From a virus (taxonomy: Duplodnaviria; Caudoviricetes): a stretch of DNA of 55,754 nt. The number at the start of each line of letters is the position of its first letter. Position 1 is the stretch's first letter. Position numbers and translations under genes: made by a program. The notes under the pieces are model-generated. The model was not told the origin of the DNA. It saw only the letters and a program-made list of their open reading frames with translations, and did no database searches. Shown here in pieces: positions 3,001-55,754 of the stretch. The DNA is taken from positions 1 to 55,754 of IMG/VR virus record IMGVR_UViG_3300020176_000019. One strand, written 5' to 3'.

Positions 3001-6000
3001 CAAAGGAAGAACTCTCTTGGCTGCGGCTTCTTTCTTCAGGTTGACCCGACTAAGGAACTTACCTACCTTGTCTGTCGGATCTTGCTGGAGAGCGTCCCGT
3101 AGTTCAAACATACGGGCATTGAAGACAAACTGCTCACGGGCATCGATGAATGCCTGTAGTTGGGCCTCAGTGTCTTCAGCGTTTGAGAGAGGCTCCATAC
3201 GTGAATGAGCCTCGATGTTTCTTTCGTCGCCTGTCTTCTGCAACTCATCCAAGAAAGAGTTCAAAGAGACCTTAATCTGGGCAACAGTGGTGAAGTCACC
3301 TTCTTGATCGGCTCCATTGGTGGTGTCGAAACGCCCGACACCAGCAGGAAGCTCCACACTCTTAAATGGGACTGCTGCGAGACGGCTGGCCTTTACGTTG
3401 TTAAAGTATAACTCTCGGTTCGCTTCAGCTCCGGTAACCTTGGATTCGAGAATGTTGCCGTCGGGAGACAGAGCAACAACATCAATCACGTTGTTATCGG
3501 GGTCCACAATGATCGACGGGTTGAGGCCGGACATCGCGAAATTATTTGGGACCGATACGGGAACATTTGATCGAAGCATTTCAGCAACCACGACCGGATC
3601 GTTGTCGAACACACCCGCGCCGTTCTCATCAATGAAACCTGCTACGGTATCTTTTTTACCAGTAACGGGATTGAAACGCTTCCGGTTGGAAGGACTTTGG
3701 AAAACAGATCCTCCGTAAGGTTCCTTAACTTTTACGGTTGGATAAATGGTGTAAGTCGAAGAGGCGACATAGTCAGAGAAGGTTGCCGCGTCAGCATCGC
3801 TATAAATTGGGAGACCAAAATCCTCTTTATAGGTGATCTCTTGAGGATATCCCATGCTAGCAAGATCAATCGCTTTACGCTGAATGATCGGTAGGTTCTC
3901 TGAGGTAGTGGGAGCAGATTCAAATTGGATCTTATCTCTGGATACCCTCCGAGCATAGCTCTTGGATTCAGGGACCTCACCCACGATCCCCGCCATATTC
4001 TTCTTACGGGTAAACCGCTCAACCTGATACTTGATTTCTTCTGGAGACGCCCCTTCAAGTTCCTTCAAGAGGTCTTGAACTTTAGCAGGCCCTTCATCAG
4101 CAGGGGTTCCCTCCTCAACCTCTATAGAATTGAGGGTATCAGTGAACCCAATAATATCGTTATCTTTCTCCGCGATTAAGGTATTGAGTTCGCCAAGGCG
4201 GTTTACTTGAGCCTCGTCAGGTTCTTCGATTGATTCAAGTTGCTCCAACTCTTGTTGGAACGCCGTGCGTTCCTGTTGGGCGAGATCCAGAGAGTTCTGA
4301 ACTTCAGTTCTCTTATCAGGAGTTTCTGGTTCTGGCTCTGGCTCTGCCTCGACTACGGGTGCAGCTACAGGCATGGTCCTCTTACTCTGGTCGATAACAT
4401 TTTTTACTACTTCAGCCGAAATGGGGCTTCCACTTTCTTGGAGGTTGGCGGCTACATCTTCGTAGTATTCCTCCCGAAGTCTGGCCGCTTGCTCGACTCG
4501 ATCCATTGGCGTCACACCAACACGGCTAGCTCCAGCTTGGACTGCGGGGACACCAGCACCCAAGACCCCACCGACCATGCCAGCATGGACGACTTGCTTC
4601 CAACGATCAATAAGAGGGGTAGTCTGATCAAGGGCCACGTCCTCGATGTATGAGTTCACCAACTGATCAATGCCCTCCTCCAGACCTTCATCAATCGCCC
4701 CTTTCGCAATCTTACCACTGGTTCTAAGGAACTGGTTACTATGCTTGGCGAGGGAATTTTTAAGGGCTTTACCCATCGCGCTCTTCAGGGCGTCGTTGGT
4801 AATCCCTCCGGTGTTGGCTAAAGCTCCTAAAACATTTTTCGCTTCTCTGAAGGTCATCCCCTTTAACAAGGCGTCTTCCACACCACCGCGACCTATCGTG
4901 CTGAAGGCTGACGTAATAAGACCCGTAGCAACACCAGCGGTCATTGCGAAGCCCATCGCTCTGTCATGAAGCTCGTCATCACTCATGTCAGGGTTGCTAG
5001 CCTTGAGCTGGTTATACATACTGCCGTAACTCATGGCGGAAGATCGAGAGGCAGCAGGAACGAATGTTCCAACGGCAAGTCCCATCTTCTGAGCCACTGC
5101 GTTGTTATATGCTTTGATGGCTTCTTTAACGGCACCTCCCTCGGCGGATTCACGGATCAGGTTACGGGCTAAAGCAGTCTTGGCAACGGCCTCCATAGTG
5201 TCATCACCAGCTCTAAGGACATTGCTGGTAATCGCTTTAACAAAGCCAGCCTTCGTTAGTCTGGCACCTGACCTCGCCGTAAGGTAAGCAGCCCCACCCA
5301 CTCCGGCAGTCGCTGTAGAAAGCAGGAAGGTCGCTCCAATATCTACAATCATGGGGGCGATGGCCTCCATGACATCTTGTCCTACGCCAAAATCTGCGCC
5401 AAACATCTGGGCAATCTGCCTGCGGTTGGCCTGATCTTTCGCGATGTCTTGTAGACCTTCCTTACCCCAATCAACTCCTAAAGCAGCCGGAGCAAGGTAG
5501 ACAAGGCTGGCGATAGAATCCCATACAGAAGCAGCAATCCCGCTCGTCCTCGCACCCAATTCACTGAATACTTCTTTGTCCGCAGTGAATTCTGTTAAGA
5601 TGTCCGCGTCTTTCTTGCCAGCCTGACGACCCAGAAGAAGGGCTTCGGACCATTCGTCAGAATAGCTGGACTCGTCAAGAACCTTGCTGTAGTTCTCGAA
5701 CTGATCTTCGAGGACCATCTCACGAGAATTTATAAAGAGCTTCTTGGTTTGGTCAGACAGTTCAGGGTGGGAAGCTATGGACTTCGCAAAAAGTTCATCG
5801 TTTACAAACACAGCAGGGTTAATCTGTGCGCCTAACTTAGTTGAGATAATGTTCTCACTAATCTCTTTGCCTTCCGAACGAAGGGTGAAGACACCTTTGC
5901 TGAAACCGTTCTGAACAACGAGTGCTTCATAGGCATCACGCACATCACTCGGCTTGTAGTTAGCACCACTCTCGTTAAGCTGATCCGTAATGTATTCGAC

Positions 6001-6945
6001 AGCATCGTCGATATTACGCATGCTGGCATACCTCACGTTCTCCCTCCGCTCATCCATAGCATCATCCGCTACACCAATAGCACCCAAGAACTCAGAAACG
6101 GTGCTGCCGACAGCACGAGAAACCGACTCAGCAGTAGTGTCCTTCTCACGAGCCATCTGCAAAGAATGACCATCCACAAACTCGGAAACAAAGTCATCAC
6201 TCTTAGCAAGCTCGACGATACCTTTGGAGATCTCCATCAGTTCCTTCGTCTTGTATACAGTGACTCCGGTATCGGGGATCACCTGAAGGTTATTCTGGAT
6301 AATGGCTATGTCTTCAGGGTTAAAGGATACACCGCCAAGCTGGGAGGACTTAACAGCTTTAAGCAAAGGCATTTCAGAAGCAAAGTCGCTGACTAACAAC
6401 TCGCGTCCTCCTTTTCCGTCTTGAACGAAAGCAAACGGTAGCTGGTTCGCTTTGACAAGTTCCTCCTTCGTCTGGTCCAAGCGGAGGCCAACTACTACTT
6501 CAGCCTGCTCGCGCATTGCATCTACCTTCAGGCGGAACTCTTCTGCGGCATCAGGCTGCTCTGAGAGAACTTCCAAACCAGATTGGTAATCCAAAAGAAC
6601 CTGACGGTCAGGGTCGTTTACACCCAGAGAAGAAAATACAACATTAAGTTTAGTATCGAAGTCAACGTCTTTAGGAGCGAGAGCCTGCTCGACAGACTCC
6701 TCGGTCATACCCTCAACTAAGCTAAGTCCTTGGCGCAGACCAACTTGAATGTCCTGTTCCGCACGAGCATCGTAGGCATCTCCTAGCTCATTACGCACGA
6801 AATCCGCATAGTTCAAAAAACTCTGCGGGTCATCGCTTGGGGCTACATTTTCTTCAGACCACTCAGCGAACGGCTTAATTGTCTTCGGGGCTTCAGAATC
6901 AGTAAAGATTCTCTTCTCGGATTCGGTGAGGTTCAGATCAGACAT
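1..6945 (-). CDS. Giant internal virion / polyvalent protein, >2315 aa, truncated by window edge; ART-PolyVal-like ADP-ribosyltransferase domain (~715-1450) and two zincin-like domains (EExxH)
   Basis: ATG at 6945 (MSDLNLTESEKRIF). Frame had no stop in the lines I translated and runs off position 1; the ORF track lists no ORF in this frame, as expected for a stop-less frame. Motifs: DAEYLAAVESGDMEAAQRMVD..GLLGSGFYA..EVVVANPNQIKSAEPVTRDANGNVIPLSQRFD; LLEEYIH; NEEIAH. Confidence 0.85.
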   Translation of the reverse strand, partial: MSDLNLTESEKRIFTDSEAPKTIKPFAEWSEENVAPSDDPQSFLNYADFVRNELGDAYDARAEQDIQVGLRQGLSLVEGMTEESVEQALAPKDVDFDTKLNVVFSSLGVNDPDRQVLLDYQSGLEVLSEQPDAAEEFRLKVDAMREQAEVVVGLRLDQTKEELVKANQLPFAFVQDGKGGRELLVSDFASEMPLLKAVKSSQLGGVSFNPEDIAIIQNNLQVIPDTGVTVYKTKELMEISKGIVELAKSDDFVSEFVDGHSLQMAREKDTTAESVSRAVGSTVSEFLGAIGVADDAMDERRENVRYASMRNIDDAVEYITDQLNESGANYKPSDVRDAYEALVVQNGFSKGVFTLRSEGKEISENIISTKLGAQINPAVFVNDELFAKSIASHPELSDQTKKLFINSREMVLEDQFENYSKVLDESSYSDEWSEALLLGRQAGKKDADILTEFTADKEVFSELGARTSGIAASVWDSIASLVYLAPAALGVDWGKEGLQDIAKDQANRRQIAQMFGADFGVGQDVMEAIAPMIVDIGATFLLSTATAGVGGAAYLTARSGARLTKAGFVKAITSNVLRAGDDTMEAVAKTALARNLIRESAEGGAVKEAIKAYNNAVAQKMGLAVGTFVPAASRSSAMSYGSMYNQLKASNPDMSDDELHDRAMGFAMTAGVATGLITSAFSTIGRGGVEDALLKGMTFREAKNVLGALANTGGITNDALKSAMGKALKNSLAKHSNQFLRTSGKIAKGAIDEGLEEGIDQLVNSYIEDVALDQTTPLIDRWKQVVHAGMVGGVLGAGVPAVQAGASRVGVTPMDRVEQAARLREEYYEDVAANLQESGSPISAEVVKNVIDQSKRTMPVAAPVVEAEPEPEPETPDKRTEVQNSLDLAQQERTAFQQELEQLESIEEPDEAQVNRLGELNTLIAEKDNDIIGFTDTLNSIEVEEGTPADEGPAKVQDLLKELEGASPEEIKYQVERFTRKKNMAGIVGEVPESKSYARRVSRDKIQFESAPTTSENLPIIQRKAIDLASMGYPQEITYKEDFGLPIYSDADAATFSDYVASSTYTIYPTVKVKEPYGGSVFQSPSNRKRFNPVTGKKDTVAGFIDENGAGVFDNDPVVVAEMLRSNVPVSVPNNFAMSGLNPSIIVDPDNNVIDVVALSPDGNILESKVTGAEANRELYFNNVKASRLAAVPFKSVELPAGVGRFDTTNGADQEGDFTTVAQIKVSLNSFLDELQKTGDERNIEAHSRMEPLSNAEDTEAQLQAFIDAREQFVFNARMFELRDALQQDPTDKVGKFLSRVNLKKEAAAKRVLPLVSIDKAGDLSNDAIIETFVDQYAVNNPDLSGNTPPSFASVLSNSTRNFAVQKEAMDRRHNTDATLTFPLDKKDITKIARKRSDFIENFGRKPDGGAASPEDVAAMMVSSIDNALDAINSDQKLRVSVEDFVTNNVFDGSPQMQEVVRSLSPKDLFGFLSSWVVTSNGRIRNSVSEFVTSLESGSLFRGIDLRDALIATRFTTRPDGLGIANKSAVGEFQSLFADFTGELLTVEQARNTMLAIDGALRTRLSRSQITEQMRVEITARNNATITKLGLKSGDAQSVVKALKNIAKGMGNKNEQLAAKLLLEDTNFIENNVRFVIGEGNIDIAGKYIKSINGNHIVFINRTSGSGRGLVNTLLEEYIHAFTSDTVAATEAALAANKNKAAARKNLEKIFNGIAANYDAEVTSGEVPNSVVADGVENLDEFIAKFFLVDEFQNYIKKTVGPNSFDSIIDSIVTIFPKVSPSEKRSYVSAFRDILDLGKRGRKQTAPDAKALGSSAADKVLFSAPISSSPTTAQDAEYLAAVESGDMEAAQRMVDAAIQNSNYKAKGVRAGVYRDGVPLMPSERGLLGSGFYAILDGKKEDVRQFAGPLVGPERDDKSLESRVDDLAIDLGDNPIFLDGTDGINKYIRENGLEDQFKKWLAYQDAVNTAYKSVGGKRPESLEEVRGGTIQRDLEDVGTGVGAGFKSQNTRNDANFLLDRVVSAIVVDHSKSYGERDFKEVVVANPNQIKSAEPVTRDANGNVIPLSQRFDETKSSILFSAPSMEATVDPNILEGVPEDQKGLVSQGINLIRSLLPPSIQIKVAEIDTGGSLAYASKDESAIFINRGVLANILASRDFDSLSAKNIIGVSVNEEIAHIAGFNALTQEEVDNYVESLSDGDYQKIITEYTQNSPDSVAAALRAELASEDADVVLATKRQLAEEKLRMHLQKVTKGFTTEEDVRFWKKNPSLLAMLKRYFAGVMRRFAANREPLGGAGGAALNKMVNEMRAIEVGFVR

Positions 6946-6989: not shown

Positions 6990-8024
6990 TCAAGGTTGCT
7001 TAGGTGTAAACAAACTAGAAATAATTGGAGGGCCTTCAGGCTTTTTATAAGCAGACTGCATGATGGCTCTGGTCTGCCTCAAGACTGCCCTGTAGAGATC
7101 TGCGTCAGAGAAGGACTCTTTACTGAGGGCAGAAGGATTCTTATCTAAAAAGAACTGCTTTTCAGGTGACGAATAGTCATAGTAGAGACGCTCCAACTGA
7201 AATCTTGGTGCGGCTTCAAAGGTAATGTCTTGCGTAGCCTTTGTAGCGATGGCTTCGAGTTTAGTTAAATCGACTTTTTCCCCCACTCCCTCTAAAAGAC
7301 CAGCCTCAATCTGTTCACCGATATCGACGGGAGACATTTTAATGACGTTGCCATAGTCGTCTTCAGCTCGTTTAATTAGGGCCGTAGTTCTTTGCTCCTC
7401 TTGCACCCTAGATAAATCGGCTTGGGCTTTCTGAACTTTATCGAGACCTTTTTTCTGAACAGCTTCAGAGATGTCAATCGCGATCTGCTCACGAGGAGTC
7501 ACGGTGCCGTCTCTCTCAGCTTGCGTCCTAACAGTATCAACGGGAACACCACTCACGGCAGCTTGATACAACATACCGGAAACTTCTTCCTGCTGCTTAT
7601 ACTGATTACTTAGTGAGTTGCTAGCTGACTTAAACAGATTGTTAATCAAAGGCGAGAACTGAGCAGTAGTCTGATACTGCATCTGTAGTTTGGCGAGATC
7701 CTTCTGCTGATCAAAGATATTCTGATCTTTTCGATCTATGATAGTATTGAGTTGATCCACGACTTCTGGAATACGCTCCATAGCCTCATTCTCCATACGG
7801 GCTGTTTTTCTAGCTTGGCGTAGACTAAACTTCTGTTGTTTGTAAGCGAGATCCTGCTGCCGCATACGCATTTGATGCTCCTGCATCTTCATGGTCTGCT
7901 CGCGCATAGGCATCAGGACTTCCTGACGATATTTCATCGCTTGATCAAAACCACGTTCGCCAACGAGCATCGGGAAATACTGCTGGCGGAGAGGCGCGAT
8001 GTCTTGGTTGAAGTCGATGGCCAT
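6990..8024 (-). CDS. Putative internal virion (ejection) protein
   Basis: 344-aa Q/E/A-rich helical ORF directly upstream of the giant virion protein; function inferred from position. Confidence 0.6.
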   Translation of the reverse strand: MAIDFNQDIAPLRQQYFPMLVGERGFDQAMKYRQEVLMPMREQTMKMQEHQMRMRQQDLAYKQQKFSLRQARKTARMENEAMERIPEVVDQLNTIIDRKDQNIFDQQKDLAKLQMQYQTTAQFSPLINNLFKSASNSLSNQYKQQEEVSGMLYQAAVSGVPVDTVRTQAERDGTVTPREQIAIDISEAVQKKGLDKVQKAQADLSRVQEEQRTTALIKRAEDDYGNVIKMSPVDIGEQIEAGLLEGVGEKVDLTKLEAIATKATQDITFEAAPRFQLERLYYDYSSPEKQFFLDKNPSALSKESFSDADLYRAVLRQTRAIMQSAYKKPEGPPIISSLFTPKQP

Positions 8025-12683: not shown

Positions 12684-12755
12684 TTATATAGGGAATAGAG
12701 TCGGAGGAGATCTCCGGACGATGGCTTCTGTTTCTCCATTCATTGAACACCCTAT

Positions 12756-46860: not shown

Positions 46861-49082
46861 TATTCTTGTTCACGAAACCTTAAGGCGGCTTCGGCATCAC
46901 GGATCGCTTGCTCTTGGTCGAACTTTCTTTGCTTGATAGCCATGTCCAGTTCTGCCTTTTGCTGCGCGATCTGCATATCGACTTGCGCCTTCTGTAGTTT
47001 CATATCTATCTCAGACGCTTGGGGTTGTCCAGCCCCTTCTTGCATATTTTCTGCCTGCTCGCGTTGGATCTTTTCCAACGCCTTCATCGTGTTGTTGATG
47101 GCCTCCTCGGCATACTGGAGGACTTGCTTCGTCTGAGCCACTGTAGCCTGCAACGCTGGATCGCCCGCAGCAAATTGGGCGGTCTCGCTGATGTGCTGGT
47201 AGAGGGCCTGCAAAGCCGGAAGGACTCTCTGTGGATCTGCCTGACCGCCGTCGATGGCTTCGATGATCTGCTGGAGCAACGGAACGTGCAACTGCAAGTG
47301 CTGGCCGTGTAACTCGCTCGATACAACCGGAACTGGCTGTCCTTGCTGCAACTGCTGGTTCTCCAGATAGGCAATCTTGGTATCTACCGTCGGCCTCTCC
47401 GAGTCTTGCGCCGGAACGTAGCGATCCGCGAGGTCGTGACCGACACGAGTGCTAACGATGTCACGAGTAAGGTTGCGGCGGCCCACGTCATCGAACTGTC
47501 CGCTGATTCCTTGCAGCTCCCGCAGTGCGACGAGTCGATTAGCGTGTGAGCCGTTTCCGATAGAGCGGACTGCTTTGGTTTGTTCGACATCAAGTTTCTT
47601 AATAAAGTCTGCGTCTACGCCGCGCTTCTCGCACCGTGCGAAGAAGTCTTTAATGGCAGCGTCAGGACGTTTGGTCTGGACTACTCGGCGAACCATCTCG
47701 CGCATCAGGCGGGTCCAGCTCGCGTAGAACAAGTTAAGGGTAGAACCAGAAATACGGGTAGCGACATCCATGTCGGCTACCACCTGCATCTGATTCTTGT
47801 ATGGTGAACCCTGATTCGGTCCATAGGTGGATATCGTATCGGTATTCAGTGCGAGCTGCTGCGATAAGTCCTGCAACGCTGGTTGGACCGCTGTGCCTAA
47901 GTTGGGGATCGCCTTCTCGACAATCCGCACGTTGGGCGACATCACGGCATACGCGCCGTAGAAAGTGAACTGTAGCTCGTCCAGCGAGCGTTGGTTCTCC
48001 GGTTGAATCATCACGGCAGAGCCGAGCATCGCGCCGTCAATCTGCTGGCAACGTAAACGGTTACTCGTCTGGACATGCGAGAAGATCCGCTGGCCCAAGC
48101 CCCGAACAGAATGGTAGGTGCCGTTGCTGCCAACGCCATACGAGAAGAAGATATACGCCTGCTCCGGTGAAGCATAGCGACTAACCTTCTTGTAGAGGAA
48201 GTCCTTCGGGCTGGTTTCAGCCGATATATAGTGGCTTACGCTCCCATCCATCTCGCGGACCCAGTAATGAAGCACGTCTACAGTTGGGTTTTGAATTCCG
48301 GTGTAGAGGTCGTTGTTCTTAATCTCCGCTTGAAGAGCTTCATAGTCGGAGTAAGTCGTGCCAGATTGATAGGAGCGACCCGAAGTTTTCACGTTGTCAA
48401 GCATCACCCGCTTGACCTCATCGACGTTCCAACCAACTGATTTAGCGGCCTTCTCGTTCTTGATGAAATGATATAGCTCGTGCAGATGGTATTGGCGTCG
48501 GCCAATAGCGATGTCGATCCCGTTCTCAGAGGCAGGTGATTGTCTCGGAATCAGGATATCTGCAAAACCGCCGACTCGAAACTTCCAGTCGTCGGGCGAG
48601 TCGAAGTAGGCAATACCTACGCCGTGCTTAATGAATTGAGTGCAAAGTCGAAGGTAGCTGGAGTGAAACTCTGGCCAACGGCGGAACAAGTTTGTCAGCT
48701 CTTCCGCTACAACGTCCTCTTTTGGCCCCTGCTCGCTTTTCTCGCCCGTTGTGGATTTCACCTCCACAAGACGCTCCAAAGAGCTGTAGAGGTCAACGTA
48801 GGCCGAAAGAGAGATATCCAGCAAACGCTGCGCTTCTCCAAAGTTCAAGTTGGTCTTGAGTCCCTGACCACTAGCCGCCAACTGCGATTGGCTGTAAGGC
48901 GCAGCACCGTCAAACATACTGTCGATCCGCGCACGGTTGACAGCGGACTTCTCATCAGCCTTGAGCAAGGTAGCAAATAGGCCGACAGCAGACTTCACGT
49001 CCTTCAGGCGTGTCTCGACTGGTTTCCCTTTTTCATCGAGACTCCCCAAGTCGAGTCCGTCCAAGTCAATTAGGTTTGACAT
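46860..49082 (-). CDS. Portal protein
   Basis: ~740 aa from ATG 49082 (MSNLIDLDG); first large head gene; RGLG motif and Q-rich helical C-terminus typical of podoviral portals. Confidence 0.75.
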   Translation of the reverse strand: MSNLIDLDGLDLGSLDEKGKPVETRLKDVKSAVGLFATLLKADEKSAVNRARIDSMFDGAAPYSQSQLAASGQGLKTNLNFGEAQRLLDISLSAYVDLYSSLERLVEVKSTTGEKSEQGPKEDVVAEELTNLFRRWPEFHSSYLRLCTQFIKHGVGIAYFDSPDDWKFRVGGFADILIPRQSPASENGIDIAIGRRQYHLHELYHFIKNEKAAKSVGWNVDEVKRVMLDNVKTSGRSYQSGTTYSDYEALQAEIKNNDLYTGIQNPTVDVLHYWVREMDGSVSHYISAETSPKDFLYKKVSRYASPEQAYIFFSYGVGSNGTYHSVRGLGQRIFSHVQTSNRLRCQQIDGAMLGSAVMIQPENQRSLDELQFTFYGAYAVMSPNVRIVEKAIPNLGTAVQPALQDLSQQLALNTDTISTYGPNQGSPYKNQMQVVADMDVATRISGSTLNLFYASWTRLMREMVRRVVQTKRPDAAIKDFFARCEKRGVDADFIKKLDVEQTKAVRSIGNGSHANRLVALRELQGISGQFDDVGRRNLTRDIVSTRVGHDLADRYVPAQDSERPTVDTKIAYLENQQLQQGQPVPVVSSELHGQHLQLHVPLLQQIIEAIDGGQADPQRVLPALQALYQHISETAQFAAGDPALQATVAQTKQVLQYAEEAINNTMKALEKIQREQAENMQEGAGQPQASEIDMKLQKAQVDMQIAQQKAELDMAIKQRKFDQEQAIRDAEAALRFREQE

Positions 49083-49090
49083 ACTTTGCG

Positions 49091-49118
49091 AGTATATGGA
49101 TTTCGTCGTCAATGTCAA
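49091..49118 (-). promoter_or_regulatory. sigma70-type promoter, near-leaderless portal transcript
   Basis: TTGACA-N16-TATACT, then 8 nt to ATG 49082. Confidence 0.65.
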
Positions 49119-49546
49119 TGTTCAGGGTAGGCGTCCTCCACGATCTTCTCCATGCGGACCCAATGGGCGCGACCGTCTTCTGTCTTGAGGCGGACATACT
49201 CTTTCTCTCCGATGTCCTTAGTATGGACTAGAAACGGGTTACCTCGATACTTCCTACCAGTATTCCGGAATTTCCAGACAGCTCCGTAAGGTGTGACCTT
49301 GTAATCAGGATAATCATCGACGACTCGCATCTCTACGTTTGGTAGCGTGTGTTGATGCACACTCAAGTCGTCATGGTAAACTCTCCGTTGCGTTCCCTCG
49401 ACGTCTACGACGTAAGAGTATGACCGTGTATTAAGCTTATAGCGTTTTACCCTTTTCGCGAGCTTCATGTTATACACATGGTCGTTAGGCGACAGCGCGT
49501 ATTGTGGCGCGCCTTTGATTTCTTTCCAGTTTTCAGGTATTCTCAT
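49115..49546 (-). CDS. Tandem NUMOD4-like protein without a recognisable nuclease domain
   Basis: WKEIKGAPQYALSP..HVYN and MRVVDDYPDYKVTPYGAVW..YVRL; no HNH motif. Confidence 0.65.
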   Translation of the reverse strand: MRIPENWKEIKGAPQYALSPNDHVYNMKLAKRVKRYKLNTRSYSYVVDVEGTQRRVYHDDLSVHQHTLPNVEMRVVDDYPDYKVTPYGAVWKFRNTGRKYRGNPFLVHTKDIGEKEYVRLKTEDGRAHWVRMEKIVEDAYPEH

Positions 49547-49690
49547 CTTTAGTATCTTATAGTTTTCAGGACCCCCACTTCAAAAACTTTTCCCCACTAC
49601 CCTTAGTATCTTATAGTTACTATTAGATACTAATATATTAGAGAGAAAGTTTTTGAGGTGGGGGGGTAGAAAACTATAAGATACTAAAGA
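49546..49690. repeat. 145-bp quasi-palindromic element, copy B (inverted copy of 9281-9425)
   Basis: Perfect 22-bp terminal IR extending imperfectly to ~45 bp; central 15-bp IR; reverse complement aligns without gaps to copy A. Confidence 0.95.
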
Positions 49691-49944
49691 TGTCCAGAAA
49701 AAAGTTTCCGCGCCCTTCTTTTCGCCAGAATCTTGTCCTTATTTTTCTTGTAATAAGCTTTGTTGTAGTCACTTAGCTTCTTTTTGGCCTCTTCTAGTTT
49801 TTCCGGTTCGAGCAGCTCTTGGATCTCTTTCCGCCTCTCGAAGCGCGGTTTCGATTCTCGGTAATACTGGTTTTGATACGCCAAACGCTCCTTCCGGTTC
49901 GCCAAATAGTATTCCCGTTTCTTTTTTGGGTCGTATTCCGCCAT
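49684..49944 (-). CDS. Basic helical protein with (K/R)xYY repeats, putative DNA-binding
   Basis: ATG 49944; KKKREYYLANRKERLAYQNQYY..YNKAYYKKNKDKI; stop codon lies inside element B. Confidence 0.6.
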   Translation of the reverse strand: MAEYDPKKKREYYLANRKERLAYQNQYYRESKPRFERRKEIQELLEPEKLEEAKKKLSDYNKAYYKKNKDKILAKRRARKLFSGHL

Positions 49945-49949
49945 GCCCC

Positions 49950-49978
49950 TCAATACCAAAAACCAGCATATTGGTCAA
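49950..49978 (-). promoter_or_regulatory. Possible sigma70-type promoter, leaderless
   Basis: A-tract, TTGACC-N17-TATTGA, 5 nt to ATG; weak -10. Confidence 0.4.
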
Positions 49979-50100
49979 TTTTTTTCTAAATAGGGATATG
50001 TATATACACGGCTCCGCAGAAAAAGCCGACCCCCCACCCGTGGCGTGTTGCGCGATCGCGCCTCAAAAGGTCTATCACTCGCTCGCGTCCGATACACGAA

Positions 50101-50317
50101 TTCTGTTTCATGTATCCCGATTCATGCATCCTGAATCGTGCGTCCTGTTTCGTGCGTCCTGTTTCGTGCAACAGGAATCAGGAAACAAGATGCAGGAATC
50201 AGGAGACAGGAAACAGGAGACAGGAAACAAGAGACAGGAAACAGGAGACAGGAATCAGGAGACAGGAAACAAGAGTCAGGAAACAAGAGACAGGAATCGG
50301 GATTCAGGAATCATGAT
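50101..50317. repeat. Array of ~31 degenerate heptamers in one register, with a polarity switch at ~50170
   Basis: Ten TCCTGTT/TCGTGCG-type units, then ~21 ACAGGAA/ACAGGAG/ACAAGAG-type units; C at position 2 and G at position 5 in nearly all. Confidence 0.9.
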
Positions 50318-50633
50318 ACGTTGATGCATTGCCCGTTCACTCTCCGGAAGAATGGCGAGGAATGGCGATGGTCATCGACATCAGCTTGAATCCCTGAATC
50401 CCTTATCCCTTTTCCTGAATAATTGTCTTGTGGAATCGCAGAATGTCTGAAACTCGCGTAATGGCCCCAGAATGCGTTCTGATGCGCTTTTGTCATTTTA
50501 TGGACATGGTATCGAAAGAATCCTGAAACGCGATCCTGCGCGATTCGCTGTTAGTCTGAACAGTAGAATAGGTGTTCGTTGGTCGTGCGTATATAGTGCA
50601 GCCATTTTATTGTCATTTTATTCAAAAAACTAC

Positions 50634-50662
50634 TTGTCAGGATAAAGGGCGCGTGATTGTCT
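50634..50662 (+). promoter_or_regulatory. Possible early promoter
   Basis: AT-rich UP-like tract, then TTGTCA-N17-TTGTCT; weak -10. Confidence 0.35.
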
Positions 50663-50664
50663 TG

Positions 50665-51080
50665 CGTTGTCGCCGCGAGGTGACGCCCGATCGGTCTCAA
50701 GCCCAGTTTGCAGTGGCCATCGGATGAGGAGGGGCAAGTGATCATGGATCGCCCCGTCACCTCCTCTCTCCACCTTCACCGAGTGAGACCGAGCCGCTAC
50801 CAAGCCGCCATGATTAAGGGTCAACCGGAAAGGACGAGAGAGGAGTCACCGAACGTAAAGAGGGCCGGACCCATAACGCGAGAGCGATGGGCCACCCTAC
50901 TACGGCCAGCGGCGCGGATGCCCCGTTGGGAACCATACAGCCGGAGCAGCTCTTGAGAGGGTCCGGTCGAGATCACAAGTGAGGGTCCGCCATTACCCTG
51001 AAACTATTCCCGCCGCTCCTTCCGGCAGGTTGAGTAGTCCGCCCCGAATCGGGCAGGTGAGCGGTTACCACCATGCGACT
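50665..51080 (+). ncRNA. Candidate structured non-coding RNA / long early leader
   Basis: No convincing ORF; many GC hairpins; CTCCTCTCTC (50761-50770) complementary to GAGAGAGGAG (~50835-50844). Confidence 0.35.
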
Positions 51081-51084
51081 CACA

Positions 51085-51148
51085 AGCTAGCCGCCTTCGG
51101 GCGGCCATAGCTCACAGCCTCCGGCCATGTCGGAAGTTGTGAGCTATG
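51085..51148 (+). promoter_or_regulatory. AUG-sequestering double-hairpin RNA motif, copy 1
   Basis: AGCTA-GCCGCC-TTCG-GGCGGC-CATAGCTCACAGC..GTTGTGAGCTATG. Confidence 0.75.
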
Positions 51149-51361
51149 AAAGCAAAAAAAGAAAAACACATTGTCTGGTGTCAAGTAGGCGGATCGGGAG
51201 AAATCGTGAAACTTTTTGAGAGTGATGATCTCGGCAAGGCGATCAAATTCGCAGATAAATGCGAAAAAAACCCGCGCCGATATTTATCAATCCATTCCCG
51301 TGATTACCTCCGAGGCTGGGGCATCGGAGTCGATGGCCCCTTCATAAAAAGTGAATCCTAA
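51146..51361 (+). CDS. Early hypothetical protein
   Basis: 71-aa ORF starting at the base of the stem. Confidence 0.6.
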   Translation: MKAKKEKHIVWCQVGGSGEIVKLFESDDLGKAIKFADKCEKNPRRYLSIHSRDYLRGWGIGVDGPFIKSES

Positions 51362-51362
51362 C

Positions 51363-51455
51363 AGCTACTCCCGCTCCGGCGGGACATAGCTATCAGTCAC
51401 CAGCTCGAAAATGACCCGCCCTCTTGCGGCGATGAGCTGGTGATTGATAGCTATG
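51363..51455 (+). promoter_or_regulatory. AUG-sequestering double-hairpin RNA motif, copy 2
   Basis: AGCTA-C-TCCCGC-TCCG-GCGGGA-CATAGCTATCAGTCACCAGCTC..GAGCTGGTGATTGATAGCTATG (22-bp stem). Confidence 0.75.
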
Positions 51456-52559
51456 AATGCAAAAACCAATACACCGACAGCCTCGACTGTCGATCAGATA
51501 GAAGCGGTTGCCAAGGCCGCCCTTTTCGCAGACAACTACCTCCGGATTCTTGGCCGATCCGGAGGCGGAAAAACTACGCTGGCCGCCAAGCTGGCCAAAT
51601 CAATCGGCATTGACTCCGAGCGGGTCAAGCTGGTCAACTTCTCCGGCAGCTTGCCGAGCCAAGTAATCGGCCAGCTCATGCCTGATGCCGCCAGCCGTGA
51701 AAGCTGGAGGACCAAGCCCATCGACTTGCCGTTGAGGGATAAGGTCGGCGACGACCCCTACCTCATCATCCTCGACGAGTTTGAGTCATGGGAGCAAAGC
51801 ATTCAGTGCCTGTTCCACGGCCTCAAATCTCCGGACGGCGTGCCGCGAGTCGGCAGCCATGAATTGCCGAAAGGCACGTTCGTTGTCCTGACGGGCAACC
51901 GGAGAGAGGATGCCGCCGCCAGTAATACTGGCAAGGCTCCGATCGTCGGTCGGTCCTCCTCAATCGAATGGCTCCCGACTGTCAAAAGCTGGGCCGCTCA
52001 CGAGGGTGAACGTGCCGCCGCAAGTCCAATCGCCGCCTTTTTAGGCTACGCGGCTAAGGCCGGATCGGAGGTCGCCGACTTCTTTTGTCCGGCCCCGCCG
52101 AAGCCATGGCGCGGCGAGCCTTACCCTCAACCGCGAGAATGGTCCGCCGCTCTTGCGGTGGAGGCTAGTCCGGCATGGCCCGCCGATCCGGCATTGCAGA
52201 ATCTAATTCTGGCAAGTAAGGTCGGACAGACTGCCGCCGATGCTTGCTGCGCCTTCCTTTCACTGGCCCGCAAGATCTTGCCATTGATGGAGTCAATCCT
52301 GAAAGGCGAGGCCCCGCTTCCGAACGGCCCGCAAGATCGCTACGCCATCGCCCACTGCGCAATCAGGAGAGCGATTGACCTTGCCGGAAAGGATCCGGAG
52401 GCCGCTGTCGCGGGCGGCAAGCTCGATCCAATCATCGATCGGATCTTGCTCCCATTAGACCCCGAAATGAGGGTCTGGTCCTTCAATGCCGCCAAGGCAG
52501 CGGGCATCCCTCTCGAACTGCATAGAGCGCAAGCCCAGCTGCAAAACCTCAACCTCTAA
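51453..52559 (+). CDS. MoxR/CbbQ-like AAA+ ATPase
   Basis: Walker A GRSGGGKT, Walker B IILDEF, sensor TGN, arginine finger VGR, PREW. Confidence 0.85.
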   Translation: MNAKTNTPTASTVDQIEAVAKAALFADNYLRILGRSGGGKTTLAAKLAKSIGIDSERVKLVNFSGSLPSQVIGQLMPDAASRESWRTKPIDLPLRDKVGDDPYLIILDEFESWEQSIQCLFHGLKSPDGVPRVGSHELPKGTFVVLTGNRREDAAASNTGKAPIVGRSSSIEWLPTVKSWAAHEGERAAASPIAAFLGYAAKAGSEVADFFCPAPPKPWRGEPYPQPREWSAALAVEASPAWPADPALQNLILASKVGQTAADACCAFLSLARKILPLMESILKGEAPLPNGPQDRYAIAHCAIRRAIDLAGKDPEAAVAGGKLDPIIDRILLPLDPEMRVWSFNAAKAAGIPLELHRAQAQLQNLNL

Positions 52560-52591
52560 CCCTTAACCCCAAACCTAGAAAAACCAATACC

Positions 52592-53479
52592 ATGAAAGAA
52601 CTGAATAGTATCTTAATAGCAAAGGTTTCCACCGCGAAACCATCACTGACTCGAAGCTTGCCCAAGCAACTCACCGACCTCTGCCGCCGTGCCGGAGTCG
52701 ATGAGAAGGAGGTGAATGCCCCTTCTGTCAAAGTTGTCAAATCAGATCTGGTGAAGGAGGCATTCAAGTTGATCAATGGCATGACGCCATTCTTGCGGAA
52801 AGGAAAGGAAGGCGTGACCGGAGAGAAGCTGAAAAAAGGTCTGGCCGTCGATGAGATCGCCGGAGCGACCTATATCAAAGCCGCTGACGTAGAATCAATT
52901 CAAAAGGAATTCGACGCCCGCCGCAGCCAACTCGATCGCCTTCTCGATCAGATCGGGAATCAATACGACAGCCTGATTCGAGAGCGGCTGGCGGAGATCG
53001 GCAACCTCGCCTTCGAGGTTGAGGTCCCCACTCGATCGGAATTCCTCGCCGACTTTGGGTTCGACTTGGAATTCCGGTCAGTCGATTCCGGCGTCAGCAA
53101 CGCCGTCCTCGATCAAGTGAGCGGCGAGGTTGCCGCTCGCCTCCGCGCTAACAACGCGAAGGTGCAAAACGAGTTTAAGACGGCCCATGCCCAGCCGATC
53201 CGAACTTGCATCGCGGAGCTGACCGAAACCATCGACCAGCTTGTCGATGGCAAGCGGCTTCGACAGGAGCGGCTCGACAAGGTCGTGGCCGTGGCCGCCG
53301 ACATGCGCGAGCAGAACTGGCTCGGATTGCCGGACCTCTCCAGTCTGGCGACCAAACTGGAAGGGCTTGCAGCAAAGAAGGAAGCATTACCGGACGCCGC
53401 CGCTCGCGAGTCGCACGCCGCGAAGGCCGAGGCCGTGAAGGCGGAGGCCGAAAGCCTGCTTGCCGGATTTGGAATCTAA
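52592..53479 (+). CDS. DUF3150-like helical protein
   Basis: All-helical protein between the AAA and vWA genes; G.TYI..F..R..L..F/Y..P...F...F pattern. Confidence 0.55.
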   Translation: MKELNSILIAKVSTAKPSLTRSLPKQLTDLCRRAGVDEKEVNAPSVKVVKSDLVKEAFKLINGMTPFLRKGKEGVTGEKLKKGLAVDEIAGATYIKAADVESIQKEFDARRSQLDRLLDQIGNQYDSLIRERLAEIGNLAFEVEVPTRSEFLADFGFDLEFRSVDSGVSNAVLDQVSGEVAARLRANNAKVQNEFKTAHAQPIRTCIAELTETIDQLVDGKRLRQERLDKVVAVAADMREQNWLGLPDLSSLATKLEGLAAKKEALPDAAARESHAAKAEAVKAEAESLLAGFGI

Positions 53480-53496
53480 AACGTAGAACTGATAAA

Positions 53497-54819
53497 ATGA
53501 ATAAAGAACTCCTTGAGAAAGCCGCACGCCGCCTCCGGCAATATGGCGGCCTCGGCTACCAATCCTATCTCTCGATGCCAATCGAGGAGACGAGCGAAAC
53601 GCCCTACGGCGCGACTGATGGTCGTTCCCTCTACTTGAATCGGGAAGGGATCGACAAGCTAGCCCGCTCCGCCGATCCGGTCGGCTTCACGGCCTTCCTG
53701 TTCCTGCATGAAGCATTGCACGCAATGCTCCGCCATCCGATCCGATGCCGCGACATGGCCGACCGTGAGACTGCCAACATCGCCGTCGATTATCTGGTCA
53801 ACGGCCTGATCGATCAGATCAATCAGGAGACGGTCGGCCTTGTGCCGTTCCCGATCATTGAAGGGGCCTATCTTGACCGCGCTTTGAGCGATGGCCATGA
53901 TGCACTCTCGCTATACAACCTCCTTCTGGCCGACAAGCCGGAGGAGAGCGATGAGTCCGGCGATGAGTCTGGCGAGTCCGGCGAGTCCGGCGATGAGTCT
54001 GGCGAGTCCGGCGATGAGTCTGGCGATGAGTCCGGCGATGAGTCTGGCAATGAGTCTGGCAGCGGCAGCAAGCCATCCGATCCCGACGATCTCTCCGACA
54101 TTCACTCCGGCGATTTCTTCGAGCCGTCTCTCGAAGACGGTGAGACGGTCGAGGACTTCGACCGATCGGTCAATGAGACGATCGAGCAAAACGCCGCGCA
54201 AAACGAGATGGATAAGATTGCCGGAATCGGCGGCAGTGATGCCCTCTCGAAAGCTGTGGCCGATGCTCGCAATCAGTTCCAGAAGGTAGACTGGCGAGAT
54301 CACCTCTCGCAATGGCTTTCGTCTTCGATCGCCGGAGGCGAGTACGATGGCATCGATGCCTCATTCTACTCCGGAACCGGACTAGTGGAGGATGAGAGAT
54401 CCTGCCGCAATGTCGGCGAGCTTGTCGTGATCATCGACACGTCCGGATCGGTTGTAAATGACAACCCTTTCGTCACCTCCGCTCTCGACCAGATCGAGAC
54501 GTTGTCATCCGATGTCGCGCCGAAAACGATTCACGTTGTCCATGTCGATTACATCGTCCGGCACCATGAGGAGTTAAATGCTGGCGACCCCGTTGGCCGT
54601 GAGCTTCACGGCGGATGGGGAACGAAGTTCAAACCGGCCTTCGACTGGGTTGAGGAAAACGCGCCCGAGGCCAAGGGAATCGTTTACATCACCGATGGAC
54701 TAGCGAGCGACTGGTCAGAGGTAGACGAACCGCCGCTTCCTGTCTTGTGGCTTGACTACGGCTACCATACCCGCATCTACAAATTTGGCGAAGTCGCTTC
54801 GATCTATCGGGAGAGCTAA
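53497..54819 (+). CDS. DUF2201-like metallopeptidase (HExxH) + vWA-like domain protein
   Basis: Start ATG 53497 (MNKELLEK); ATDG..LY.N, FLHEALH, NIAVD..VN; MIDAS-like DTSGS, GGWGT.F, YITDG. Confidence 0.85.
   Translation: MNKELLEKAARRLRQYGGLGYQSYLSMPIEETSETPYGATDGRSLYLNREGIDKLARSADPVGFTAFLFLHEALHAMLRHPIRCRDMADRETANIAVDYLVNGLIDQINQETVGLVPFPIIEGAYLDRALSDGHDALSLYNLLLADKPEESDESGDESGESGESGDESGESGDESGDESGDESGNESGSGSKPSDPDDLSDIHSGDFFEPSLEDGETVEDFDRSVNETIEQNAAQNEMDKIAGIGGSDALSKAVADARNQFQKVDWRDHLSQWLSSSIAGGEYDGIDASFYSGTGLVEDERSCRNVGELVVIIDTSGSVVNDNPFVTSALDQIETLSSDVAPKTIHVVHVDYIVRHHEELNAGDPVGRELHGGWGTKFKPAFDWVEENAPEAKGIVYITDGLASDWSEVDEPPLPVLWLDYGYHTRIYKFGEVASIYRES
53950..54060 (+). repeat. 9/12-bp coding repeats (ESG/ESGD acidic linker)
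   Basis: GAGTCYGGC(GAT) units in tandem. Confidence 0.9.
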
Positions 54820-54832
54820 TCGTTTCACCGTT

Positions 54833-54879
54833 GCTCCCGCCTTCGGGCGGGGGTATAGGTGGATTGATCAGATCAATCC
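54833..54879 (+). promoter_or_regulatory. Intergenic double hairpin (UUCG stem + GGATTGATC-A-GATCAATCC)
   Basis: Two adjacent inverted repeats after the vWA gene; no U-tract. Confidence 0.6.
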
Positions 54880-54912
54880 TGCTTAACAATAAAACCAAGA
54901 AACCAATTAAAA

Positions 54913-55038
54913 ATGATTCCACGCAAACATTTAATAATCGTGTCGGTCCTTTACATTCCGGCTCTCGCGCTCATCTCATGGATCGGGCTAGATACTATCA
55001 CTCGTAAGATCCTTGAAATCCTCTTCTTCACATTCTAA
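54913..55038 (+). CDS. Small hydrophobic membrane peptide (41 aa, not in track)
   Basis: MIPRKHLIIVSVLYIPALALISWIGL..; A-rich leader like its neighbours. Confidence 0.5.
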   Translation: MIPRKHLIIVSVLYIPALALISWIGLDTITRKILEILFFTF

Positions 55039-55055
55039 ACCAAAAACCAAAAACC

Positions 55056-55310
55056 ATGAAAATAATAATTGAATCAATCGATTACGCAGATCCCGACATC
55101 TCGACCGATGTCGTGGATCAGGTCCACCTCTCGAACGGGACGACATTGCTCTTAGATTCGGGTAAACCAACCTACAACGTCTATGATCAATCGCTCGGCC
55201 CCGTCGAAGTCGGCGCGGAGTTAGTGCAGACAATAGTAGAAGGCGGAGAAGGAGACTACCGAACCCACATTTTCAAAAATGAATCTGTCTCGATAGATAT
55301 CCTTCACTGA
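55056..55310 (+). CDS. Early hypothetical protein
   Basis: 84 aa, preceded by AAACCAAAAACCAAAAACC. Confidence 0.6.
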   Translation: MKIIIESIDYADPDISTDVVDQVHLSNGTTLLLDSGKPTYNVYDQSLGPVEVGAELVQTIVEGGEGDYRTHIFKNESVSIDILH

Positions 55311-55320
55311 ACCCTGACCC

Positions 55321-55350
55321 CCGCACCTTGATTCCTGTATCAGGGTGCGG
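55321..55350 (+). promoter_or_regulatory. Intergenic hairpin
   Basis: CCGCACCTTGAT-TCCTGT-ATCAGGGTGCGG. Confidence 0.55.
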
Positions 55351-55397
55351 CAATCAGGAATCAGCCTGAGCTAAATAAACTAATAAGAGAAAAACCA

Positions 55398-55679
55398 ATG
55401 AAAGTATTAAGTAATAGCAAGATGGATATCACCATCGAAGTAACTCCATCCCCACCGTTTGAGGGGATAATCCGCTACACGGCAACCGCATGGGTGGGTG
55501 ATCAGTATACCTCGCATCTCTACCTACAGCGGGAGAGCTTTTGCCAAGAGTGGTCTGCGAATGAAGCGGCAAAAGAACTTAGCTCTTTTATGTCGAAGCA
55601 GTATCCGAAAGCTACGTTTAAAACTAAGCTGACCGAAAAGGTCGAGACTAAGTTCTCATCAATGAAATCAGTGATATGA
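55398..55679 (+). CDS. Early hypothetical protein
   Basis: 93 aa, A-rich leader. Confidence 0.6.
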   Translation: MKVLSNSKMDITIEVTPSPPFEGIIRYTATAWVGDQYTSHLYLQRESFCQEWSANEAAKELSSFMSKQYPKATFKTKLTEKVETKFSSMKSVI

Positions 55680-55754
55680 AATACGAAAAACAACCCAATA
55701 AGCCGGATTGGTATCGTTCCAACGATACTAAACTTTATTCCTCAGCCACGTCAG
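55676..55754 (+). CDS. Early hypothetical protein, truncated at window end
   Basis: ATGA overlap; MKYEKQPNKPDWYRSND open to the edge. Confidence 0.4.
   Translation, partial: MKYEKQPNKPDWYRSNDTKLYSSATS

Follow-up and report, generated by a model that had tools for sequence, protein, structure and literature searches.

A double-hairpin RNA element that buries the start codons of variable early genes in an uncultured phage and its relatives

Consecutive early genes of an uncultured marine or salt-marsh phage begin inside a composite double hairpin, an RNA structure in the mRNA sense in which pairing is held by compensatory changes. The element buries the start codon of the ORF that follows it, leaves no room for a promoter and stands before cassettes that vary from genome to genome. 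We propose, with a probability of roughly 0.45, that it is an intercistronic site for an RNase III-type double-stranded RNA nuclease. Phage early regions are where unannotated genes for host takeover and anti-defence gather, and the acquisition and expression of such genes are poorly understood outside the T4-type phages. The element described here is a compact, covariation-supported RNA motif, not present in Rfam, that couples a start-codon lock and a probable processing site to cassette exchange in a lineage without Shine-Dalgarno sequences. If cleavage does take place, it would represent a natural operon insulator, like the artificial ones of synthetic biology, and could be used to track down early-gene cassettes in phage genomes from metagenomes.

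The two elements and their genomic setting

The window (the whole stretch of 55,754 nucleotides that was analysed) is a linear 55.7-kb IMG/VR virus record with an estimated completeness of 92%. It encodes a terminase, a family A DNA polymerase, a helicase, a primase and an endolysin, and ARAGORN identified no tRNA or tmRNA in it. A block of large, structural-looking genes occupies the minus strand, and a noncoding region of 1.6 kb (49547-51145) leads into a plus-strand gene block that includes a 71-aa ORF, a MoxR-like AAA+ ATPase, a 295-aa protein and a DUF2201 VWA/metallopeptidase protein. This last protein contains an acidic Asp/Glu-Ser-Gly repeat at 53940-54060, where RNA-library contigs break. 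The phage appears to have no close cultured relative; blastn of 50000-55754 against a phage collection and tblastn with the portal-sized 752-aa protein returned no match, and tblastn with the ATPase returned just eight records at 24-27% identity. Leads to the host are weak and mutually conflicting, with a Bacteroides-phage-like polymerase (the best matches of the DNA polymerase are Bacteroides phages, at 28% identity) set against a near-identical phage contig binned in a metagenome-assembled genome (MAG) labelled Opitutae. A complete relative of 58.5 kb, here termed G001, shares about 75-80% nucleotide identity with the window. A giant ORF at 1-6945 on the minus strand, truncated there at 2314 aa, converges on the early genes and attains its full size of 4300 aa in G001, in which it crosses the record ends; searches with it against Pfam, PHROG and PDB gave no match.

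The features of the early region are as follows.

50556..50598, plus strand: promoter-like motif, CTGAACAG ... TATATAGTG, conserved in relatives
50722..51080, plus strand: conserved noncoding leader module between the promoter-like motif and element 1, with 72.7% identity to G001
51085..51089, plus strand: upstream AGCTA word, an optional part of element 1, read in the sequence
51090..51105, plus strand: hairpin 1 of element 1, GCCGCC-TTCG-GGCGGC, a 6-bp GC stem with a UUCG loop, from the fold
51106..51148, plus strand: hairpin 2 of element 1, CATAGCT...AGCTATG, 13+6 bp with one mismatch, ending in ATG, from the fold
51146..51361, plus strand: 71-aa cassette ORF (family 3), ATG at 51146-51148, no Pfam or PHROG match
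51364-51368, plus strand: upstream AGCTA of element 2, followed by one spacer base, read in the sequence
51369..51384, plus strand: hairpin 1 of element 2, TCCCGC-TCCG-GCGGGA, a 6-bp stem with a UCCG loop, from sequence and fold
51385..51455, plus strand: hairpin 2 of element 2 (long form), CATAGCT...AGCTATG, a 23-bp stem with an inner branch, ending in ATG
51453..52559, plus strand: MoxR-like AAA+ ATPase, 368 aa, ATG at 51453-51455, phrog_1297 (E 4e-25)
54828..54899, plus strand: degenerate third element, 18.7 bits with the covariance model (E 0.016, filters off)

Ahead of the elements, the promoter-like motif has a counterpart (TTGAACAGTG, about 28 nt, TATATAG[T/G]G) in all related loci with a long enough upstream flank, and also in a clade without double hairpins. 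Its spacing does not fit sigma-70. Transcription of the early RNA with the elements probably starts in this region, and TATATAGGG has a second intergenic copy at 12685. The idea that the TATATAG-type motif is a multi-copy phage promoter was rejected: it is intergenic and gene-oriented only at 50590 and 12685, and two such copies do not make a repeated phage-polymerase promoter. Downstream of it, the leader module is common to G001/L001, L023 and L009, gives way to unrelated sequence in L012 and L013 and is missing from L034; among viral contigs, an exact 27-mer from it was found in G001 only. RNAalifold on four sequences predicts 91 pairs in the module, among them a long-range closing helix, and 14 pairs show changes on both sides; no Rfam match was obtained for it (whole window; E<=5 over 49500-51600). 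The module may be a new structured RNA, a suggestion that rests on four sequences, too few to decide.

Further upstream, in the noncoding region between late and early genes, there is a near-perfect inverted repeat of 139 nt at 49549-49687, and short tandem and inverted repeats (with units such as CAGGAAAC and CAGGAGA) lie at 50100-50320. G001 has other simple repeats in these places, and loose contig ends at 49579 and/or 49690 in three RNA-library runs suggest an alternative arrangement there. This repeat region may serve as genome end, packaging site or origin.

Both leaders read as an earlier, sequence-only reading of the window had described them, with a GC stem, a UUCG or UCCG loop and CATAGCT...AGCTATG ending in the ATG start; the last three bases of the stem, in the mRNA sense, are the start codon, which is buried as that reading had claimed. 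The whole elements span 51090-51148 and 51369-51455 on the plus strand, without a spacer between hairpins 1 and 2, and hairpin 1 of element 2 begins 8 nt past the stop codon at 51359-51361. The stem described earlier for element 1 (13+6 bp) was confirmed, but that of element 2 comprises 23 bp instead of 22; its long form of hairpin 2 is also seen in L010, L012 and L020. As RNA, element 1 folds at -45.0 kcal/mol (z -7.6) and element 2 at -56.8 kcal/mol (z -9.1), and none of 200 shuffles folds as well. CATAGCT and AGCTATG separated by up to 80 bases occur in exactly two places in the record, which are the two elements, and the chance expectation for CATAGCT-N(10-40)-AGCTATG is 0.00 (100 shuffles). 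When the covariance model was run over the whole window with filters off, it returned only three matches on the plus strand: element 1 (51082-51160, 87.3 bits), element 2 (58.1 bits, and 70.2 in another run) and the degenerate site. Apart from these three, the window has no GC-rich UNCG hairpins.

The degenerate site consists of a 10-bp UUCG hairpin (54832-54855), TATAG and a 9-bp hairpin (54861-54879) that lacks an ATG, the next one being at 54913; counterparts in L010, L008 and L023 score about 18 bits each. Two looser double hairpins had been pointed out in the window: the one at 54833-54879 is this degenerate member of the family, but the hairpin at 55321-55350, though real, is of a different type. 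It belongs to another intergenic unit (55321-55375) made up of a GC hairpin, AATCAGGAAT[C/G]AGCCTGA and an A-rich leader, and units of the same AATCAGGAAT type are found at 7557-7610 and 7800-7850 in L034 and at 2855-2905 in L033, the unit recurring in relatives between genes further along the same operon. AGCTATG without hairpins also lies ahead of two genes, at 6945 and 32295.

Structure, strand and distribution among relatives

Persistence of the motif in relatives had been set as a test, and the family was found to total 32 instances in 13 related phage loci, with one to five per genome (the maximum, five, in L032) and all in gene sense. These are 29 instances in 12 loci plus three in a MAG contig, and most counts below use the 29. 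In 22 distinct short-form instances, pairing is retained in 94.9% of 550 cells, versus 35-46% when the partners are slid; changes on both sides affect 9 of 25 pairs, and none of 500 shuffles reaches the real values for pairing or covariation. Between instances, hairpin 2 differs wholly in sequence over its distal half and still pairs there, and two instances carry a compensatory change of the AGCT/AGCT box itself, to AGCC/GGCT. Covariation, first remarked upon between the two copies in the window, extends across genomes in the 22-instance alignment.

Folding is better in gene sense for 21 of 25 instances (means of -43.1 versus -38.4 kcal/mol), G.U pairs account for 42 cells and the loop of hairpin 1 is UNCG in 25/29 instances, the special stability of UNCG loops being a property of RNA. 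Full-length matches to the covariance model occur in gene sense only, and those on the reverse strand cover hairpin 2 alone with about half the score. Some cells fit the opposite strand instead: C.A in 11 cells of one pair, and A.C in a second pair, would there be wobbles, and hence the coding-strand bias is clear but not absolute. The G.U pairs and the RNA-specific UNCG loops indicate RNA and speak against the suggestion that the element acts as a single-stranded DNA hairpin during entry, an idea that nothing here favours. Among the scanned ORFs, neither a homologue of a virion RNA polymerase nor any other RNA polymerase family was identified.

Several features of the element are constant. 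The main helix measures 17-23 bp in all 29 instances (two were first scored at 13 bp, only since a 2x2 internal loop stopped the counter), no spacer separates the hairpins in any of the 22 aligned instances and the stem base is nearly invariant (YRUAGCY / RGCUAUG). Variation is seen in the loop of hairpin 2, in the sequence of its helix and in total length (41-109 nt). Some classes of regulatory RNA were rejected on these grounds: the element is all helix, without the conserved unpaired core of a riboswitch or the conserved unpaired nucleotides of a self-cleaving ribozyme, and hairpin 2 (-26 to -51 kcal/mol) is far too stable for an RNA thermometer.

Exact-pattern scans of 2.9 million viral contigs located the element in six contigs besides the window, and a scan of species-representative genomes gave one occurrence, in the phage-like contig of the Opitutae-labelled MAG, which is 87.7% identical to the window's structural genes and holds the three instances mentioned above. 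Homologues of the ATPase led to 18 metagenome loci, eight with one to three elements upstream of the ATPase and ten with a 130-nt leader but no element, which shows that the ATPase gene can do without it. Rfam produced no match at gathering score over the whole window, and relaxing the limit to E<=5 over 49500-51600 added nothing but generic hairpin and miRNA-precursor matches far below threshold. Word searches of the main text of open-access literature returned no description of the element.

Besides the ATPase, a conserved gene after the last element that is annotated as MoxR-like in cyanophage matches, the elements precede members of at least 12 further ORF families (60-133 aa); searches of the cassette ORFs against Pfam and PHROGs gave no significant annotation. 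Cassette order is [family 3][ATPase] in the window, [family 4][ATPase] in G001 and [family 4][family 3][ATPase] in L020, with family 3 also following an element in L020 and L023, and one ORF family can occupy differing positions, with differing neighbours, across genomes. G001 carries two identical elements in the equivalent place but a different small ORF between them: similarity to the window ends at the ATG of element 1 (~51150) and returns from 51323, about 40 nt ahead of the cassette ORF stop, with unrelated ORFs between. At position 741 of L032, a 5' arm with CAC faces a 3' arm with GAG, and the stem looks chimeric. At the DNA level, the element bounds swapped ORF cassettes; every cassette is flanked by the same unit of about 60-90 nt, and this would therefore be the place where recombination swaps, adds and removes small early ORFs.

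Start codons, processing of the early transcript and rival readings

The possibility that the true starts lie elsewhere had been raised as a test of the buried start codon. Residue M1 of the ATPase is invariant in an alignment of 18 homologues (57-100% identity), and relatives without the element begin the gene at the same ATG; on these comparisons, the start codons are sound. Families 2, 4 and 5, which follow elements, are real ORFs, as many of their codon differences are synonymous only (e.g. 26 versus 18 amino-acid changes, and 8 versus 2); the three copies of the window's 71-aa ORF are too alike to judge synonymous excess. No Shine-Dalgarno sequence was found by eye at 37 gene starts of the window, the leaders of which are A/C-rich (e.g. 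AAACCAAAAACC ahead of ATG). Hence, initiation must need an accessible start region, and the intact element provides none.

From this architecture we infer cleavage by an RNase III-type enzyme, with effects on translation and stability. The element would be a structured RNA within the polycistronic early transcript, with a very stable UNCG hairpin just past the upstream stop codon or leader RNA that abuts, without spacer, a double-stranded helix of about two turns, the 3' strand of which ends in the next AUG. In the intact transcript, this AUG would be inaccessible. An RNase III-type endonuclease, most simply the host's own, would cut the long helix within about 8 bp of its base, a distance taken from an E. 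coli rule that may not hold for this host. The downstream ORF would thereby end up on an mRNA whose leader is only a few nucleotides long and whose coding region opens with A-rich, unstructured sequence, and the upstream RNA, after trimming back, would be left ending in the protective UNCG hairpin, so that every inserted ORF would be given the same expression context. After a double-strand cut, the AUG could stay trapped in the remaining lower stem of about 8 bp as long as the upstream fragment has neither dissociated nor been trimmed.

Among the functions put forward in the sequence-only reading, an RNase III-type site would best fit this geometry of a 17-23 bp helix stacked on a UNCG hairpin. 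In one account of E. coli RNase III, helix length is a primary determinant and typically amounts to two helical turns, coaxially stacked short helices can provide the needed length and the minimum distance between cut and loop is 11 bp (PMC1540722). A length of about two turns, in one helix or stacked, is found in 29/29 instances. The helix of 17-23 bp, the direct abutment and the UNCG cap are what is always kept, the rest being variable, and this favours the RNase III reading. Stop codons lie 7-32 nt ahead of hairpin 1, which means that the hairpins fill the intercistronic space, and a consensus promoter scan of 51000-51500 gave no promoter-like site. The near-invariant stem base is not required by a sensor of helix length and hints at sequence-specific recognition or at homogenisation by recombination.

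Metatranscriptome data from four runs over 49000-55754, which are assembled contigs instead of reads and come from libraries that may contain DNA, give contig ends that disagree between runs. One contig ends at 51146 in run X15 and breaks occur at 51448/51451 in run X9, these being contigs only, and other contigs bridge both places; we read from them neither processing nor a transcription start nor expression. A contig of X9 (49970-51448) spans element 1 intact and one of X15 (51394-52472) passes through the AUG of element 2; either may be DNA.

A translational lock or kinetic switch that operates without cleavage seems improbable to us. On this reading, the AUG of the nascent RNA would be open for a short time only, with AGCUA holding the 5' arm, or else a helicase or other factor would open the stem; the element would throttle or time the expression of the cassette ORFs. 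It had been suggested that the upstream AGCUA competes for UAGCU and frees the AUG, and the pairing itself holds up, since it forms in the best fold of both window elements when the AUG is forced open, and 'AGC' lies upstream of hairpin 1 in 21/29 instances. The open form is, however, less stable by 5-14 kcal/mol (mean 9.2, for freeing AGCUAUG as a single strand), and only 15 of the 29 instances have an AGCUA-like word (NGYTA) within 14 nt upstream of hairpin 1. Clearing a ribosome-sized window from -15 to +12 takes 16-30 kcal/mol, and its mean of 23.6, or about 24, makes a spontaneous, self-acting switch unlikely. Moreover, 7-10 bp would be enough to hide an AUG, and the constant 17-23 bp, the zero spacer and the UNCG cap would be left unexplained. 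We assign little probability, too, to the element being mainly a DNA recombination site, like the PeSLs (promoter-early stem-loops) of T4-type phages or integron attC sites, with the RNA fold as a by-product. Differing cassette content between genomes that are 75-88% identical elsewhere, the crossover boundary at the ATG of one element, the conserved inverted core words on either side of a centre that ranges from 41 to 109 nt and the chimeric stem all agree with such a site, and the invariant AGCTATG(AAAGCA) resembles the ATPase start of element-less relatives, which fits spread by recombination. Yet compensatory and G.U changes favour one strand, UNCG loops are a stability motif of RNA, simple homology needs no start codon in the stem, and in the subset of ORFs scanned no integrase or recombinase was detected save a RuvC-like resolvase. 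A combination of both levels, in which the element would be a 'cassette adaptor' (a DNA crossover site for ORF arrays and a cut RNA insulator), is conceivable but rather unlikely; it would amount to an integron-like array without integrase that yields standard, nearly leaderless mRNAs in a host without Shine-Dalgarno pairing, and a cut at element 1 would free the leader of about 450-500 nt as a hairpin-capped noncoding RNA.

Two further readings can be set beside these. The base of hairpin 2 might be cut, in the manner of Cas6/Csy4, by an endoribonuclease that recognises both sequence and structure and is either encoded by the phage or a host nuclease different from RNase III; leaderless mRNAs would result, and this would account for the near-invariance, even in the degenerate third site, of YRUAG right after hairpin 1 and of its complement ahead of the AUG. 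The conserved bases are nevertheless all paired, two instances alter them in a compensatory way and no candidate nuclease is found among the early genes, which leaves this reading a slim chance. Slimmer still is that of a transcription signal, be it an N4-type hairpin or single-stranded DNA promoter, a terminator or attenuator, or a put-like antiterminator RNA. The elements do stand at the start of the early region, with a GC hairpin followed by a conserved YATAG, and the put RNA of HK022 consists of two stem-loops without a spacer, which the spacer-less double stem-loop recalls. As a terminator, however, the element lacks a U-tract after either hairpin, which led us to reject an intrinsic terminator, and the scan for plus-strand terminator-like sites detected none at the elements; as an antiterminator, one per operon would do, not one per cassette; and as an N4-type promoter, its loop has 4 nt, its template strand would hold C.A mismatches and the scanned ORFs include no RNA polymerase homologue, a very divergent one being possible.

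Comparison with known systems

The closest analogues of the element are the early RNase III sites of T7 and the PeSL cassettes of T4-type phages; it belongs to neither and lies outside every family tested. In T7, the early transcript carries RNase III sites R0.3-R1.3, and unmasking of a start site by RNase III occurs in the lambda N leader and in T7 gene 1.2. The element resembles the T7 early sites in being a hairpin of about two turns that probably lies between cistrons of a polycistronic early phage RNA, and in that the upstream product would end in a hairpin and a cut would expose the downstream start. It differs from them in having no sequence similarity, in placing the AUG as the last triplet of the helix with a UNCG hairpin stacked upon it and in being tied to swappable ORF cassettes. 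Furthermore, an internal loop interrupting the helix is typical of T7 RNase III sites, whereas the helix of the element is nearly perfect.

Integron attC sites, which combine conserved inverted core words with a variable centre and bound promoterless ORF cassettes in arrays, offer a parallel at the DNA level: inverted core words around a variable centre likewise bound arrayed ORF cassettes here. Unlike attC, the element shows a strand bias and UNCG loops that indicate RNA and includes the start codon as part of itself, and no IntI-type integrase was found among the scanned ORFs, which cover part of the small ORFs. The promoters of phage N4 are described as template-strand hairpins with a 5-7 bp stem and a 3-nt loop, for which the virion RNA polymerase is needed (PMC4496689); the element has a 4-nt UNCG loop in 25/29 instances and its G.U pairs would become C.A on the template.

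Cluster K mycobacteriophages carry start-associated sequences (SAS, or ESAS in their extended form), described as an asymmetric 13-bp word that contains a Shine-Dalgarno sequence and lies 3-7 bp upstream of the start, with 17-bp inverted repeats upstream of the word in about half of the copies and a variable spacer; their function is given there as still unknown (PMC3203893). As with SAS/ESAS in that description, the element is a one-orientation repeat in non-structural genes and lies beside the ATGs of different gene families (PMC3203893). Unlike SAS, it lacks a Shine-Dalgarno sequence, holds the start codon inside a stem and is unrelated in sequence, and inspection by eye of the printed element instances did not reveal the SAS consensus as given in that source (PMC3203893).

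According to the description available for T4-type phages, PeSLs combine a stem-loop, a sigma-70-type -35/-10 promoter and a Shine-Dalgarno sequence (PMC4122927). The element shares with them, as they are portrayed there, the character of a short composite repeat that stands before small, variable early ORFs, ends at the start codon and is tied to ORF insertion, deletion and replacement between close relatives (PMC4122927). In contrast to PeSLs, neither promoter nor Shine-Dalgarno sequence is found in it, and a second long hairpin fills the space and sequesters the AUG; what it retains is the start-codon-ending repeat with ORF turnover. We rate the element as a variation on phage intercistronic processing hairpins and mobile regulatory cassettes.
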